This document shows positions 5,974-18,621 of a DNA stretch of 64,000 nucleotides, piece after piece (position 1 is the stretch's first letter; each line of letters starts with the position of its first letter). A program made the translations under genes and the position numbers. This DNA is from an uncultured Eggerthella sp. (lineage in GTDB: Bacteria > Actinomycetota > Coriobacteriia > Coriobacteriales > Eggerthellaceae). The DNA is taken from assembly GCA_900542265.1 (NCBI GenBank), contig UQML01000005.1, positions 29,810 to 93,809 on the forward strand, written 5' to 3'. The notes beneath the pieces were generated by a model, which worked only from the letters and a program-made list of their open reading frames with translations, was not told the DNA's origin and made no database searches.

Positions 5974-6573
5974 TTACAATAACTCTGCGATGCCTGATTC
6001 TTTTAGCCAGGTATAAATAGTGTGTTGAAATGTCTCAACTGTCGTATCGTTAACAAACACTACATCAGATATCGCAATCCGCTGCTCTTCAGGAACCTGA
6101 CGCGCAATACGGTTTCTTGCATCTCCTTCAGGAATCCCTCGATACTTCACTAATCGCTTGATGCGAACTTCGGGCGATGCGGTAACACACACTACAAGAT
6201 CAGCATGATCGGCAAAATCATCACGTCCATCCAAAATTGCCATTTCTAACACGACAACTGCATGCGTTTTTTGTGCTTCATCAAGACGATAAAGACATTC
6301 TTTATACAGATATGATTGAGTTATTGAATCAAGTTTTTTAGTATTCTCAGGGCTAGAAAATGCACATGCCGCAAGTTTAGATCGAATGATAGTACCTTCG
6401 GCATCAAGAATGTGTTCCCCAAATGCTTCAACGAGTTCTTGCTTCATAACAGGATTAGCCAAATTGTCATGGCCAACTAAATCAGCATAAACAACCGCTG
6501 CTCCGAGCGATGCCATATATTCAGTAAACGTGGATTTCCCACTACCCATACCACCAGTTACGAAGATCTTCAT
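5974..6573 (-). CDS. coaE: Dephospho-CoA kinase.
   Basis: 199 aa beginning MKIFVTGGMGSGKST. The rpsA...coaE-uvrB order is typical of Actinobacteria. Confidence 0.9.
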   Translation of the reverse strand: MKIFVTGGMGSGKSTFTEYMASLGAAVVYADLVGHDNLANPVMKQELVEAFGEHILDAEGTIIRSKLAACAFSSPENTKKLDSITQSYLYKECLYRLDEAQKTHAVVVLEMAILDGRDDFADHADLVVCVTASPEVRIKRLVKYRGIPEGDARNRIARQVPEEQRIAISDVVFVNDTTVETFQHTIYTWLKESGIAELL

Positions 6574-6662
6574 TGTGCTTGTCCTCTCGATTGCTTAAAC
6601 CACAATCAAGTATAGTGGCTCATCACATCTCATCATATCTTTGAAAGAAAAGAATGACTGCC

Positions 6663-7727
6663 CTATCTGCTCTCTACAAACACTACGCTTTTTATAGGGG
6701 CAGATCCCAAAACGACATCATCTTGATAAAAGACGGCATATTGCCCAGGCGCTGTGGGAGTTTGCGCCACATCAAATACTGCGGTGACACAACCGTCAGA
6801 TTCGGTAAAAATTCGTGCGCTAATCGCGTTCGACCGATAACGAATCTTGACACTACATATAATTCCATCGCCCTGCCCATAATCATACTGCTCGATACCT
6901 GCTTGCCACGTCAAAGGCCAGGTCGTCAATCCTGAAATAAGTGCATCATTTTTATACGCGAGCACAAGCACGTTGCGCGAAACATCCTTTTCAACAACAA
7001 ACACCGGCTCGCCAAGCGCAATACCAATTCCTTTACGCTGACCAATGGTGTAGCGATGAAGCCCTTGATGTTCTCCTACTACGCTTCCGTCACGCAGTTC
7101 CACCTTACCAGGCGTATCAGCAATCCCGCGCTCAAGCAAAAAATCACGGTAATCAGTAGGAACAAAACAAAGATCCTGACTTTCAGCTCGATGCGCTACA
7201 GGAAGTTCATGCTCATCTGCAAAGATACGCACGTCAGTTTTTTGCCACTCCCCTAACGGCAAAACAAGACGCGCTAGCTGGTCTTGGGTAAGTTGTGCAA
7301 GCATGTAGCTTTGATCTTTTGTCGTATCATTTGCTTTTGCTATAGCGTATCGTCCTGTTACTGGATCAAACACGCGTCGTGCATAGTGACCCGTTGCCAC
7401 AAAAGCAGCATCATAAGCATCTGCTACCTCAAGCAAAACAGGAATCTTGCAAAAGCGATTACAAAACACGCAAGGCGATGGGGTTTGACCTTGCGCACAT
7501 TGATCGCAAAAAGGAACAATAACCGTACGCTCAAAAACCTCAGTCGCATCGCAAACAATATGTTCAATACCAAGAAAAGCAGCTACTTCTGAAGCCGCCT
7601 GAATAGATGCGTTTGTTGCAGCATCATCAACAAAACGAGCAGTAACACCAATAACCTGGTATCCCTGCTCAATAAGGAGAGCGGCGGAAGTTGCGCTATC
7701 GACTCCGCCGCTTAAACCTAAAACTAT
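6663..7727 (-). CDS. mnmA: tRNA-specific 2-thiouridylase MnmA, full length, but with no canonical start codon. The annotated start is the ATA codon at 7725-7727 that sits where ATG is expected.
   Basis: The in-frame minus-strand translation from 7727 reads IVLGLSGGVDSATSAALLIEQGYQVIGVTARFVDD... (PP-loop SGGVDS) and continues without a stop into the track ORF 6663-7469, which itself begins at a GTG inside CVFCNRFC. There is no ATG, GTG or TTG between the upstream in-frame TAG (7770-7772) and the PP-loop. Confidence 0.7.
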   Translation of the reverse strand: MVLGLSGGVDSATSAALLIEQGYQVIGVTARFVDDAATNASIQAASEVAAFLGIEHIVCDATEVFERTVIVPFCDQCAQGQTPSPCVFCNRFCKIPVLLEVADAYDAAFVATGHYARRVFDPVTGRYAIAKANDTTKDQSYMLAQLTQDQLARLVLPLGEWQKTDVRIFADEHELPVAHRAESQDLCFVPTDYRDFLLERGIADTPGKVELRDGSVVGEHQGLHRYTIGQRKGIGIALGEPVFVVEKDVSRNVLVLAYKNDALISGLTTWPLTWQAGIEQYDYGQGDGIICSVKIRYRSNAISARIFTESDGCVTAVFDVAQTPTAPGQYAVFYQDDVVLGSAPIKSVVFVESR

Positions 7728-7749
7728 GCGAGAAGTATTTTCTGGCGTT

Positions 7750-8928
7750 TTACTCAGCCTCAGTCTCTTCTACTTCGACAACTTCAACTTCCTTAGTCTC
7801 AGGCTCCTCAACAGCAATTTCTAAACCAAGGTCAGCTGCAGCAGCTTTCATGGACAAGGAAATGCGACGGCGATCAGCATTAATGTCCATTACCTTAACC
7901 TTTACAGGGTCACCAACATGGACAACCTGTGCAGGTGAATCAATATGCTTTGCAGCCATCTCGGAAATGTGTACTAAGCCTTCAACATTGTCACCGAGCT
8001 CAATAAATGCACCGAAAGGAACAATCTTGGTAACGGTGCCATCAATAATGGTGCCAACAGGATAAGTCTCAACAAGCTTAGTCCAAGGATCCTCAGTAGT
8101 CTGCTTTAAGCCGAGAGAAATACGCTCACGCTGCAAGTCGACATCGAGAACCTCAACCTCAACTTCTTCTCCAACTTTAACAACCTCTGAAGGATGGTTT
8201 ACGTGGCTCCAAGAAAGCTCGGAGATATGAATCAAACCATCAATGCCACCAAGGTCAACAAAAGCACCAAAGTCTACAATTGAAGAAACCGTACCCTTTA
8301 AGCGCATACCCTTAGTAAGCTTCTCGAGGATCTCAGCACGTTCGTTCTTGCGGCCTTCCTCAAGGATGACGCGACGGGAAAGAACAACGTTATTACGGTT
8401 GCGATCCATCTCAATAACGCGAGCCTCAATCTCAGTGCCAAGGTATGCAGAAAGATCTTTAACGCGACGAAGATCAACCAAGGATGCAGGCAAGAAGCCG
8501 CGAAGTCCGATGTCAAGAATCAAACCACCCTTAACAACCTCAATAACTTCACCGGTTACTACTTCTCCAGCCTTGAATTTATCCTCAACCTCAATCCAAG
8601 CACGTTCATATTCAGCACGCTTCTTAGAAAGGATAAGGCGGCCATCTTTGTCCTCCTTTTGAAGAACAAGAGCCTCAAGTTTATCACCAAGATTTACGAC
8701 CTCAGAAGGATCGGCATCTTTACGGATTGAGAGCTCGCGAGCAGGAATAACGCCTTCACTCTTAAATCCAATATCTACCAACACTTCATCGTGCTCGATC
8801 TTAACGACGGTGCCATCGATCAAGTCACCTTCGTCGAAATCGGTCAGAGTGCCATCGATCATCTGGTTCATCTGCTCGTCAGAGATGTCGTCAAACTCGA
8901 TGACAGACGTGTTCTTGATTTCGGTCAA
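7750..8928 (-). CDS. rpsA: 30S ribosomal protein S1, 392 aa with an acidic C-terminal tail.
   Basis: It aligns with actinobacterial RpsA (DGTVVKIEHDEVLVDIGFKSEGVIPARELSI...GRLILSKKRAEYERAW). The start codon is TTG at 8926-8928 with AAAGGGG 7 nt upstream, and there is no in-frame ATG nearby. Confidence 0.9.
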   Translation of the reverse strand: MTEIKNTSVIEFDDISDEQMNQMIDGTLTDFDEGDLIDGTVVKIEHDEVLVDIGFKSEGVIPARELSIRKDADPSEVVNLGDKLEALVLQKEDKDGRLILSKKRAEYERAWIEVEDKFKAGEVVTGEVIEVVKGGLILDIGLRGFLPASLVDLRRVKDLSAYLGTEIEARVIEMDRNRNNVVLSRRVILEEGRKNERAEILEKLTKGMRLKGTVSSIVDFGAFVDLGGIDGLIHISELSWSHVNHPSEVVKVGEEVEVEVLDVDLQRERISLGLKQTTEDPWTKLVETYPVGTIIDGTVTKIVPFGAFIELGDNVEGLVHISEMAAKHIDSPAQVVHVGDPVKVKVMDINADRRRISLSMKAAAADLGLEIAVEEPETKEVEVVEVEETEAE

Positions 8929-9140
8929 AACGGACCCCTTTCAAAAAAATTCGGGGACCCTTCGTACGTGTTTGTAGTTTTGTTACATAAACCATGCATG
9001 CTGCATCACGTTAATGATGACGCCAACAACAAACATGTCTCGGGGGCCAATACATTCTTTGCCTGCATGATTGCAGACTGTCAAAGTATAGCATAGTAAT
9101 ACTTTTTGACTAGCGAAAATGAAGGATTTGTGGTATGCGA

Positions 9141-10223
9141 TTATTTATGGTTACTTTCAAACTCTTTCATGAAAGAAACAAGCGCTTCAACACCTTCTTT
9201 AGGCATTGCATTATAGATAGAAGCGCGCATGCCACCAACACTACGATGACCCTTAATGGACTCAATGCCATGATTTTTCGCCTCAGCAACGAACAAAGCA
9301 TCAAGCTCATCACTTCCTGTGATGAAAGGAACATTCATGATAGAACGATCCTCCTTGCGAGCCGTTGCTTTAAACAGAGATGATTGATCCAAGAAGTCAT
9401 AGAGCAGTGCAGCCTTTTCTTCATTGCGAACTTTCATCGCAGCAAGACCACCTTGAGCCTTGAGCCATTTAAAGACTAAGCCACAAATATAAATGCCATA
9501 TGCAGGAGGCGTATTGTAGAGAGAGCTGTTCTCAACTTGTGTAATGTACTTCAACATGGTTGGAGTATAAGGTAATACCTCTTCACGTACCAAATCATCA
9601 CGAACAATAACAATGACAACACCGGCAGGACCAATGTTTTTCTGTACACCACCATAAATCAGGCCGTAATCACTTACATTAATTGGCTCTGACATAAAAC
9701 AGGACGATACGTCTGCTACCAAAGGAATATTGCCAGTCTGAGGAAGCTTATGGTACAAGGTGCCATAGATGGTTTCATTCTGGCAAATATAAACATAGTC
9801 AGCATCATCAGAGAAATTGAGCGTATCTACATCAGGAACGTAAGAAAAGTTCTCATCCTCAGAAGAAGCAATGCAACGTGCATCACCATAGATTTGAGCT
9901 TCTTTAAATGCCTTTTTTGACCAAGAGCCAGAAACGATATAATCAGCAACTTTATTCTTCATCAAGTTCATAGGAATAGCAGCAAATTGCTGAGAGGCGC
10001 CACCCTGCAAGAACAAGACATGATAGTTATCAGGAATCTGCATCAAATCACGAATGTCAGCTTCAGCAGTTTCAATAATGTTTTTGAACGCTGCTGAGCG
10101 GTGACTCATCTCCATAACTGACATACCCGTATTTTGATAATCGAGCATTTCGGCAGCAGCCTGCTTCAATACCTCTTCGGGCAAAACAGCAGGGCCAGCA
10201 GAGAAGTTATACACTCTCGACAT
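9141..10223 (-). CDS. serC: Phosphoserine aminotransferase.
   Basis: 360 aa beginning MSRVYNFSAGPAVLPEEVLKQA, class-V aminotransferase. ATG with AAAGGAG SD. Confidence 0.9.
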   Translation of the reverse strand: MSRVYNFSAGPAVLPEEVLKQAAAEMLDYQNTGMSVMEMSHRSAAFKNIIETAEADIRDLMQIPDNYHVLFLQGGASQQFAAIPMNLMKNKVADYIVSGSWSKKAFKEAQIYGDARCIASSEDENFSYVPDVDTLNFSDDADYVYICQNETIYGTLYHKLPQTGNIPLVADVSSCFMSEPINVSDYGLIYGGVQKNIGPAGVVIVIVRDDLVREEVLPYTPTMLKYITQVENSSLYNTPPAYGIYICGLVFKWLKAQGGLAAMKVRNEEKAALLYDFLDQSSLFKATARKEDRSIMNVPFITGSDELDALFVAEAKNHGIESIKGHRSVGGMRASIYNAMPKEGVEALVSFMKEFESNHK

Positions 10224-17733: not shown

Positions 17734-18621
17734 ATGAATCTTGCTCATTTAACCTATTTCAAAACGCTCGCTGAAACAAAGACGTATCGTGATACTGCCT
17801 ATGAGTGTTCTATTTCTTAATCCACTCTTTCAAATGCCATTAACGGGTTAGAAAAAGAACTTGGTACATCTCTTTTTGTTCGTAATAAAGGCTTAGCTGA
17901 GCTAACCGAGACCGGGCACATCTTTTATACTTACGTTGACACCTCACTCCGTTTTCTCAATAACGGCATTGATATTGTTAAAGAACGCTCGGGCAAACAA
18001 ATCCGCGAGATTACTATTGGAACCATTTTGTCTGCTCAAAGTCACGATTGGTCAGAACTAATTTATGACTACCGCAAACAAGTTCATGGTAATGTGCAAA
18101 TCAATGTTGTTCAATCAACGACTCCAGAAATTCTCAAAGATATTAAAGCGGGGAAAATCGATGTCGCTTTCTGCGGATCCCTTGGTCCTGATCCAGATTT
18201 AATGCAATGCCCTCGCTGGTCACAAGGCGTTGTTCTCGTCGTCAACAAAGATCATCCTTTTGCCAAACGCGATCATATATCACTAACCGAATTAGTTAAT
18301 CACTACCTGATTTCCTATACCTTAGATGGCCCAATTGGCCCACCACTTACAGCACTTATTAAAGGAAGAGATCTCACTGTAGATTGTTTATATAACGATG
18401 AGATTACGCTTGCTTCGATTGTTGCATCCAATCCCGACATTATGGCTATTGCTTGTAATTCATGGCTTTTAAGCTCGTATGGAGATCACATTAAGCTTGT
18501 TTATATTGAAGAAGCTGATGATGATTTTAGACAAATCTTTTTTAGCTATTTAGCCAATTCGGAAAAACCCCGCATTGTCGAAGAGTTTATCAAGCTCGTA
18601 ACTCAAAGTTGCATTTCTTAA
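17734..18621 (+). pseudogene. LysR-family transcriptional regulator interrupted by an in-frame TAA at codon 29 (17818-17820), replacing the invariant Gln of the HTH SQS motif.
   Basis: From ATG 17734: MNLAHLTYFKTLAETKTYRDTAYECSIS*STLSNAINGLEKELGTSLFVRNKGLAELTETGHIFY..., a typical LysR HTH, continuing in the same frame into the track ORF 18028-18621 (the LysR substrate-binding domain). Confidence 0.8.

Follow-up and report, generated by a model that had tools for sequence, protein, structure and literature searches.

An mnmA gene without a canonical start codon next to rpsA in uncultured Coriobacteriia

The window analysed here is a 64,000-nt stretch of contig UQML01000005.1 from an uncultured Eggerthella sp. 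On its minus strand, to which all rpsA and mnmA coordinates below refer, the gene for ribosomal protein S1 (rpsA) is followed by mnmA, the gene for a tRNA 2-thiouridine(34) synthase, whose reading frame contains no ATG, GTG or TTG ahead of its ATP-binding PP-loop. We conclude that the ancestor of a small clade of gut Coriobacteriia, low in GC and Eggerthellaceae-like, probably lost all canonical start codons of mnmA, and that the gene has probably remained functional. Translation would then begin on a near-cognate codon. We favour a start directly at the rpsA stop, on ACG or CTG and possibly on both, with initiation coupled to rpsA. The coordinates of the features are compiled in Table 1.

The mnmA reading frame, its relatives and its conservation

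The mnmA gene occupies the +1 frame relative to rpsA. Its translation from the upstream stop reads *KRLRLSKTPENTSR-IVLGLSGGVDS..., and the frame is open from the TAG at 7772-7770 to the TAG at 6665-6663. Reading the coordinates directly confirmed the original prediction, made from the window sequence, that the frame is intact between these positions. The same prediction had counted 101 codons without a canonical start; the lack of ATG, GTG and TTG before the GTG at 7469-7467 stood, and the stretch comprises 100 codons after the upstream TAG. Four near-cognate codons lie in frame ahead of the PP-loop, namely CTG 7763-7761, CTG 7757-7755, ACG 7748-7746 and ATA 7727-7725. The ACG had been overlooked when the two CTG codons were named as the only candidates besides ATA. 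The ATA, which is followed by GTT TTA GGT TTA AGC GGC GGA GTC GAT AGC (VLGLSGGVDS), starts 22 nt past the end of the rpsA stop and not 20 nt downstream of it, as had been stated. Canonical starts make up 6.25% of the in-frame codons in 40 window genes, and 0.6% of the 86-codon windows within these genes are free of ATG, GTG and TTG. Among about 55 gene-like minus-strand open reading frames (ORFs) of the window, mnmA is the sole one with such a gap between the upstream stop and the first canonical start.

The group to which the window belongs is uncultured and derives at least partly from human gut metagenomes; its closest named relatives are Eggerthellaceae with about 50-55% identity, for example Anaerotardibacter. 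Seven same-species contigs (L081-L085, L108, L114) carry an identical rpsA-mnmA junction including the ATA, and the five of them that were compared with the window showed 98-99.5% nucleotide identity to it. The same layout was found in the lineages L001, L086, L087 and L088, whose MnmA proteins are 77%, 79%, 80% and 70% identical to that of the window, respectively. Each of them has the in-frame TAG, no canonical start, the block GAGGCTGAGTAAAACG, the 22-nt spacer and the ATA; in L001, L086 and L087 the upstream stop is a tandem TAG TAG. These four lineages together with the window species are referred to as the clade, or the five lineages. One clade genome (L001) was retrieved by a scan of species-representative genome contigs, a set to which the window's own species does not belong. 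The ATA was seen in every contig recovered, that is, in at least 11 different assemblies or samples. Since the identical start-less layout occurs in independent assemblies and in four divergent lineages, it reflects neither a base-call error nor a recent loss, both of which the original prediction had considered. A sequencing or assembly error that conceals a true ATG has nothing in its favour beyond the oddity itself, and its probability is negligible. A very recent loss is at odds with lineages that have diverged to a dS of about 1-2 under purifying selection.

In more distant relatives (52-56% identity), mnmA mostly starts upstream, within the 3' end of rpsA. L002 and a set of gut-metagenome contigs that closely resemble one another (L095-L097 and others) have an ATG about 23 codons before the isoleucine that corresponds to the window's ATA, and L089 and L092 have a TTG start. 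L093 (~1944-2010) and L094 (~307-375), with MnmA proteins of 52% identity, lack ATG, GTG and TTG ahead of beta-strand 1; the sole canonical codon in that region is the TTG for the leucine right before SGG. Both retain ACG-CTG at the rpsA stop. Across the family, mnmA has an ATG start that lies about 50 nt within rpsA, a TTG start or, in three lineages, no canonical start, and this wide variation suggests that the family is independent of any particular canonical start codon. In L002 (2945-3015), in L095-L097, L099, L101 and L103 and in similar contigs, the mnmA ATG lies about 46-50 nt inside the rpsA 3' end. The predicted N-terminal extension, of which the first ~16 codons are K/R-rich, is encoded in the +1 frame of the acidic S1 tail, and the out-of-frame overlap is unusually long.

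The product from the ATA onward is a full MnmA. It matched NCBIfam NF001138 with 338.3 bits (cut-off 284; residues 1-345 on profile positions 2-345) and TIGR00420 with 286.9 bits (cut-off 236.95), and PF03054, PF20259 and PF20258 were all matched, in line with the three-domain architecture of HUP domain, PRC-barrel and C-terminal beta-barrel. The best solved relative is E. coli MnmA (PDB 2DER, E 3e-58), with an alignment spanning residues 15-372. The cysteines comprise a CxxC motif (Cys86 and Cys89, in PCVFC from residue 85) and Cys187 (in SQDLCF from residue 183). SGGVDS and the CxxC...C cysteines are retained in every clade lineage. The C-type, iron-sulfur-type MnmA motif is characteristic of Actinobacteria (motif definition in PMC7025502), and judged by its motifs the mnmA product is a C-type (CxxC...C) tRNA 2-thiouridine(34) synthase. 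Automatic gene calls do not capture it. The calls for clade mnmA (P0001-P0004, P0007) are N-terminally cut to 253-333 aa, begin at differing internal starts, and none includes the PP-loop. The cluster P0001 (268 aa, 85 member sequences) begins at the GTG 7469-7467, and the product from this codon lacks the PP-loop as well as the first cluster cysteine.

To assess selection, dN and dS were estimated for pairs of clade lineages by the Nei-Gojobori method. All five lineages have an unbroken ORF of 351-354 codons, with neither frameshift nor internal stop. From codon 87 to the end, dS was 0.95-2.0 and dN/dS 0.09-0.17. Codons 36-86, which precede the first canonical start and take part in no RNA structure, gave a dS of 0.8-1.8 and a dN/dS of 0.09-0.26. 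The purifying selection seen in these codons built up once the start had gone. As dN/dS in this segment is low, like in the rest of the gene, and dS is high, the full-length protein appears to be translated; and as the PP-loop is needed for activity, translation would begin before codon 6. Thus, by its substitution pattern, full-length MnmA including the PP-loop is under protein-level purifying selection and hence is predicted to be made. Given that no canonical start precedes the GTG 7469, this implies near-cognate initiation, and by this reasoning translation must start on a near-cognate codon within the 13-codon interval 7763-7725. The earlier proposal of a rare non-AUG initiator, possibly fed by rpsA, is supported in general; its choice of ATA as that codon is not favoured, as detailed below. 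GTG is less frequent among the valine codons of the first 100 codons, with for example 1 of 12 compared with 9 of 27 in the window; the same was seen in one outgroup, and the lineages are not independent. As a hint of start avoidance this depletion is suggestive only. At codon 59 (7551-7553, minus strand), the window has TGC (Cys), whereas the rest of the clade and the other same-species contigs checked have TGG (Trp, in IVWDAT).

Explanations that dispense with a near-cognate start of mnmA were weighed against these data. If mnmA were a decaying pseudogene from which at most the 268-aa C-terminal fragment is made, the truncation of all automatic gene calls (P0001-P0004, P0007) would be accounted for. 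This is highly improbable in view of the dN/dS of 0.09-0.26 at a dS of about 1 in codons 36-86 and of 351-354 codons kept free of frameshifts and stops in five lineages; moreover, the GTG lies within the CxxC motif, which leaves the fragment without the PP-loop and one cluster cysteine. Read-through or reassignment of the upstream TAG, with a start at a TTG further upstream inside rpsA, could draw on in-frame TTG codons in a region where outgroups do start. It is hardly credible, however, because TAG is an ordinary stop in the window, terminating 13 of the 49 ORFs of at least 200 codons, mnmA included, and because three lineages have the tandem TAG TAG. A programmed +1 frameshift at the rpsA stop would yield an S1-MnmA fusion. 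The GAGG located 2 nt before the last sense codon and the stop (GAGG-N2-GAG-UAA) is superficially prfB-like, mnmA is in the +1 frame, and the GAGGCTGAGTAAAACG block is invariant. The tRNAs reading GAG and AAA are MnmA substrates, and their presence at the site would allow feedback. Yet there is no slippery codon, and a base-pairing check indicated that tRNA-Glu on GAG cannot re-pair on AGU. Furthermore, no stimulatory structure lies 3-8 nt downstream, the nearest strong hairpin being 37 nt past the stop, and in relatives that share the junction mnmA has an ATG or TTG start of its own. We therefore regard such a frameshift as very unlikely. Explanations other than a start at the rpsA stop or at the ATA share what probability these two leave.

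Table 1. Features of the rpsA-mnmA region of the window
Feature	Position	Strand	Description
rpsA (ribosomal protein S1)	7750..8928	minus	Stop TAA 7752-7750
In-frame TAG closing the mnmA frame upstream	7770..7772	minus	Arises from rpsA codons GTA-G
Shine-Dalgarno-like GAGG	7758..7761	minus	9 nt before ACG; abuts CTG 7757-7755 (0 nt); 30 nt before ATA
mnmA coding region	6663..7757	minus	Drawn from the furthest conserved near-cognate (CTG 7757-7755) to the TAG stop 6665-6663; 354 codons counted from ATA
Candidate start CTG	7755..7757	minus	Overlaps rpsA stop by 8 nt (CTGAGTAA); 15 residues before Ser of SGGVDS; 0 nt after GAGG
Candidate start ACG	7746..7748	minus	1 nt after rpsA stop; 12 residues before Ser of SGGVDS; 9 nt after GAGG
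rpsA stop-to-ATA stretch (A ACG CCA GAA AAT ACT TCT CGC)	7728..7749	minus	22 nt; either first MnmA codons or leader
Candidate start ATA	7725..7727	minus	22 nt after rpsA stop; 5 residues before Ser of SGGVDS; 30 nt after GAGG
PP-loop SGGVDS	7695..7712	minus	ATP-binding signature; codons 6-11 from ATA
Hairpin B	7680..7712	minus	Codons 6-16 (SGGVDSATSAA); base at +16 from A of ATA, 37 nt past last rpsA stop base
Hairpin C	7637..7670	minus	Codons 20-31; followed by GUUUUGUUGAU (7636-7626)
First canonical start GTG	7467..7469	minus	Val within catalytic Cys-Val-Phe-Cys (CxxC) motif; start chosen by automatic gene callers (268-aa product)

Candidate start codons of mnmA

Among the candidates in Table 1, the ACG is, by its predicted spacing, the codon with the best ribosome-binding geometry. 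The neighbour gene coaE starts with GAGG, 9 nt and ATG, which equals the GAGG, 9 nt and ACG of mnmA, and Shine-Dalgarno (SD) cores precede 22 of 46 window genes compared with a background of 13%. The ACG is invariant in all clade lineages and the GAGG in all five. The CTG 7757-7755 is conserved in the five start-less lineages as well as in L093 and L094; the CTG 7763-7761 is not conserved, being CCG in L088. A promoter scan revealed no sigma-70-like promoter near 7730-7800 from which a leaderless mnmA transcript could arise. In E. coli, AUA, AUC, AUU and CUG initiate at 1-2% of the AUG level and most other codons at 0.1-1%, and GFP started from ACG bears an N-terminal Met (bioRxiv 10.1101/063800).

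The comparison with 104 full-length homologues places the start upstream of the ATA. The residue before the Ile/Val of beta-strand 1 is basic in 98 of them (Arg 78, His 12, Lys 8), and the clade retains CGC (Arg) directly before the ATA, matching the family consensus. No homologue begins later than two residues before this Ile, and the number of residues ahead of the Ser of SGGVDS has its mode at 11-12 and its minimum at 7; with 12 such residues, a start at ACG would agree with the mode. HMMER alignments to the solved MnmA structures 2DER, 2HMA, 9HLN and 9HLV continue for 4-5 residues ahead of the ATA codon, pairing NTSR-IVLG with SKTR-VVVG (9HLN, 2HMA) and ENTSR-IVLG with ETAKK-VIVG (2DER). 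The stop-to-ATA spacer is fixed at 22 nt and free of indels in the five lineages. The mnmA-coaE spacer varies between 78 and 106 nt, with 28 of 45 gap columns in its most variable alignment window. Inspection by eye revealed seven substitutions in the stop-to-ATA spacer, three of them at third positions and all synonymous, four of them conservative non-synonymous; none creates a stop. Since the basic residue is kept, the alignments extend upstream, the spacer is fixed and indel-free, and the ATA has no SD nearby, a start upstream of the ATA is indicated. Most probably the ATA simply encodes the Ile of beta-strand 1; a role as initiator is less likely. The original prediction had taken it to sit where ATG is expected, giving a textbook N-terminus. 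Instead, it encodes a conserved beta-strand 1 Ile, and none of the 104 homologues starts at or after the preceding residue. Alignment of the 5' ends likewise found no ATG at this position: the clade has ATA, and relatives with upstream canonical starts have an Ile codon there (ATA, ATT or ATC).

Initiation at the ATA is, in our estimation, possible but doubtful. Ribosomes would drift 22 nt past the rpsA stop, or a 30S subunit would land on the A/U-rich unstructured leader, and hairpin B would position them on AUA. The ATA is indeed invariant in the clade, though ATA accounts for 6.9% of the Ile codons in the window, and the sequence ATA GTT TTA GGT TTA is A/U-rich and composed of rare codons, as is typical just past start sites. 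The base of hairpin B, at +16, coincides with the downstream edge of an initiating ribosome, and stem-loops early in coding sequences can activate initiation (translation-activating stem-loops, TASL, as cited in PMC11979758). AUA reaches 1-2% of AUG in E. coli (bioRxiv 10.1101/063800), and 22 nt is below the range of ~25 nt in which reinitiation is considered advantageous (PMC7518266). However, relatives that start canonically further upstream have the Ile codon and hairpin B as well, which means that neither evolved to serve initiation at ATA. The product would fall two residues short of the shortest of the 104 homologues, and the conserved basic residue would be missing from it. No SD-like motif occurs within 25 nt upstream of the ATA, and the efficiency of reinitiation falls with distance (PMC10666635). 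A literature search for natural bacterial ATA/AUA start codons yielded cases that were practically all from mitochondria, chloroplasts or eukaryotes.

Several points weigh against a start at the rpsA stop. The CTG and the GAGG are forced by the coding of rpsA (Glu-Ala-Glu-stop), which makes their conservation uninformative, and in E. coli initiation from ACG is less efficient than from CUG or AUA. In the block TCTCGCATAGTTTTAGGTTTA the nucleotide sequence itself is frozen, so that the kept Arg codon could reflect a constraint on the RNA rather than on the protein. With five lineages only, the substitution pattern of the 7-codon spacer is too sparse to prove coding. Moreover, CTG, ACG and ATA are inseparable by sequence alone, and the coupling to rpsA is read from position only. 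Two further arguments were dropped. The ACG lies 7 codons before the Ile, like the called TTG of L089, but only about 14 of 26 nucleotides match, and another TTG lies further upstream in L089. The CTG owes its existence to a GCT codon, which is uninformative, as it makes up 38% of the Ala codons and occurs also in relatives with canonical starts.

At near-cognate starts, the initiator tRNA still inserts Met. The predicted N-termini are (M)SKTPENTSR for a start at CTG, (M)PENTSR for a start at ACG and MVLGLSGG for a start at ATA. With a start upstream of the ATA, IVLGLSGGVDSATSAALLIEQGYQVIGVTAR, in which the Ile is the first residue after the Arg, is expected as a tryptic peptide.

Hairpins in the first 35 codons

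The beginning of the coding region evolves differently from the remainder. Codons 1-35 showed a dS of 0.04-0.17, with too few substitutions for dN/dS to be informative. Among columns with invariant amino acids, synonymous variation was present in 4 of 28 within the first 30 codons and in 122 of 160 from codon 87 to the end (Fisher p = 5e-10). The near-frozen synonymous sites of codons 1-35 indicate a constraint at the RNA level, which would stem mostly from two predicted hairpins, B and C.

Hairpin B has a free energy of -18 to -30 kcal/mol, with a z of -2.4 in the window and, for the seven further lineages that were folded, of -4.3 to -6.2. Across 14 distinct lineages (window, L001, L002, L086-L089, L092-L094, L096, L097, L106 and L112), 96.9% of the cells are paired, compared with 40-61% in slid controls. 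Two compensatory pairs were found, both at synonymous third positions: Gly GGA/Thr ACT is replaced by GGG/ACC, and Val GTC/Ala GCG by GTT/GCA. The window alone has GCA for GCG at 7694-7692, which results in a C-A mismatch and weakens hairpin B to -18 kcal/mol; in this it differs from the same-species contigs checked. Hairpin C, with -20 to -21.5 kcal/mol and a z of -5.1 to -5.9, reaches this strength in the start-less clade only. L089 (z +0.2) and L002 (z -1.5) lack it, and another outgroup sequence has a weaker version (z -2.5).

The two hairpins might serve as an attenuator or 3' stabiliser of rpsA, as an insulator against reinitiation, or as an aid to initiation. For the role of an insulator, the ribosome termination structure (RTS; PMC7518266) may be compared, and TASL early in coding sequences can activate initiation (Jagodnik 2017, as cited in PMC11979758). 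We considered the hairpins also as intrinsic terminators, but a simple scan of the window and of L002 flagged neither; their stems contain bulges or internal loops and the tails are moderately U-rich (CUCCUUAUUG and GUUUUGUUGAU), so that the resemblance to terminators is one by eye only. No Rfam match with E <= 1 was obtained in window positions 6400-9400. Two further structures were set aside. A helix between the rpsA stop region (CUGAGGCUGAG) and GCAUAGUUUUAG is predicted to be weak, and a 5-bp mini-hairpin in the spacer (7731-7743, minus strand; GAGAA-UAC-UUCUC) was likewise not relied on, both having a z of -0.2 to -1.0, no better than shuffled sequence. The mini-hairpin can form in four of the five lineages, the GAA for GAG of the window weakens it, and substitutions between lineages sit in its loop or keep the pairing.

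The rpsA-mnmA junction and known systems

In the mechanism that we propose, S1, as one of the most heavily translated proteins, would supply ribosomes for MnmA, which would be needed in small amounts. Ribosomes reaching or terminating at the rpsA stop would restart with initiator tRNA on the near-cognate ACG or CTG. MnmA synthesis would then be set to about 1% of the S1 flux, a small fixed fraction, without a dedicated strong ribosome-binding site. Hairpins B and C may attenuate or insulate expression downstream of rpsA. One may go further and regard the entire junction, consisting of the SD-like GAGG, the stop, the near-cognate restart and the two hairpins, as an expression divider, with a variant in which hairpin B at +16 parks post-termination ribosomes on AUA; we consider this unlikely. 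Most rpsA ribosomes and transcripts would end at such a junction, and the ~1% of ribosomes that restart would unfold the hairpins and extend expression to mnmA. If true in either version, the divider would represent natural near-cognate reinitiation conserved across several related lineages, and the parking variant would parallel, in bacteria, the effect that downstream hairpins have on weak start codons.

The locus provides a comparative case in which five lineages share the loss and two more lack a canonical start, at a dS above 1. It suggests that a conserved housekeeping gene can persist for long without ATG, GTG or TTG when it abuts a very highly translated gene, and it may serve as a natural system for studying near-cognate reinitiation and hairpins in coding regions. 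There is also a practical consequence. Every automatic gene call in the clade cuts MnmA, so that inventories of tRNA modification or metabolism would wrongly score the synthesis of 2-thiouridine at position 34 (s2U34) as absent or the gene as a pseudogene.

Elsewhere in the window, the gene for a LysR-type regulator (17734-18621, plus strand) has an in-frame TAA at 17818-17820, at the position of a conserved Gln of the helix-turn-helix (HTH) motif (I-S-Q-x-x-L-S). Right after the TAA, the match to the HTH profile picks up again at position 28. This gene is likely a pseudogene or affected by a C-to-T error.

The clade MnmA resembles the C-type, [4Fe-4S]-dependent MnmA of Thermus thermophilus (Shigi et al. 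2020, PMC7025502) in the PP-loop SGGVDS, the CxxC with a third Cys, and the three domains. It differs in that the upstream CC motif is replaced by CDQC, and the iron-sulfur likeness is a predicted one.

The arrangement of the genes recalls translational coupling at overlapping or abutting pairs (Huber et al. 2023, PMC10666635), as a start on CTG (-8 nt) or ACG (+1 nt) would lie near the upstream stop and would have little or no ribosome-binding site of its own. Termination-reinitiation is best at overlaps or gaps of a few nucleotides and steeply lower by 38 nt (PMC10666635). rpsA and mnmA are on the same strand, and the ATA, at +22 nt, would be borderline. However, known coupled pairs use ATG or GTG, typically as ATGA or TAATG, whereas the rpsA-mnmA junction offers no canonical codon, and S1 and the tRNA thiolase are not subunits of one complex.

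The E. coli genes infC and pcnB have conserved AUU starts. They, too, are housekeeping genes that keep a weak non-NUG start across related species, with low or regulated expression. Their start codon is known, they have their own SD, and they are not tied to an upstream stop. For mnmA, in contrast, the candidate starts ACG, CTG and ATA were read from the sequence, and they lie on the stop of a very highly translated gene or closely behind it.

Hairpins B and C share with the RTS (PMC7518266) and with TASL, as the latter are cited in PMC11979758, that stable, conserved hairpins lie past the stop of a highly expressed gene and within the first 45 codons of the next one. Hairpin B, however, starts 37 nt after the stop and not immediately, it is embedded in the coding sequence of the PP-loop, and its function is putative. 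Near-cognate starts and translational coupling as such are already known. What is new is this particular member, a housekeeping gene that is start-less in five lineages, abuts rpsA, and carries covarying hairpins inside the region coding for its PP-loop.

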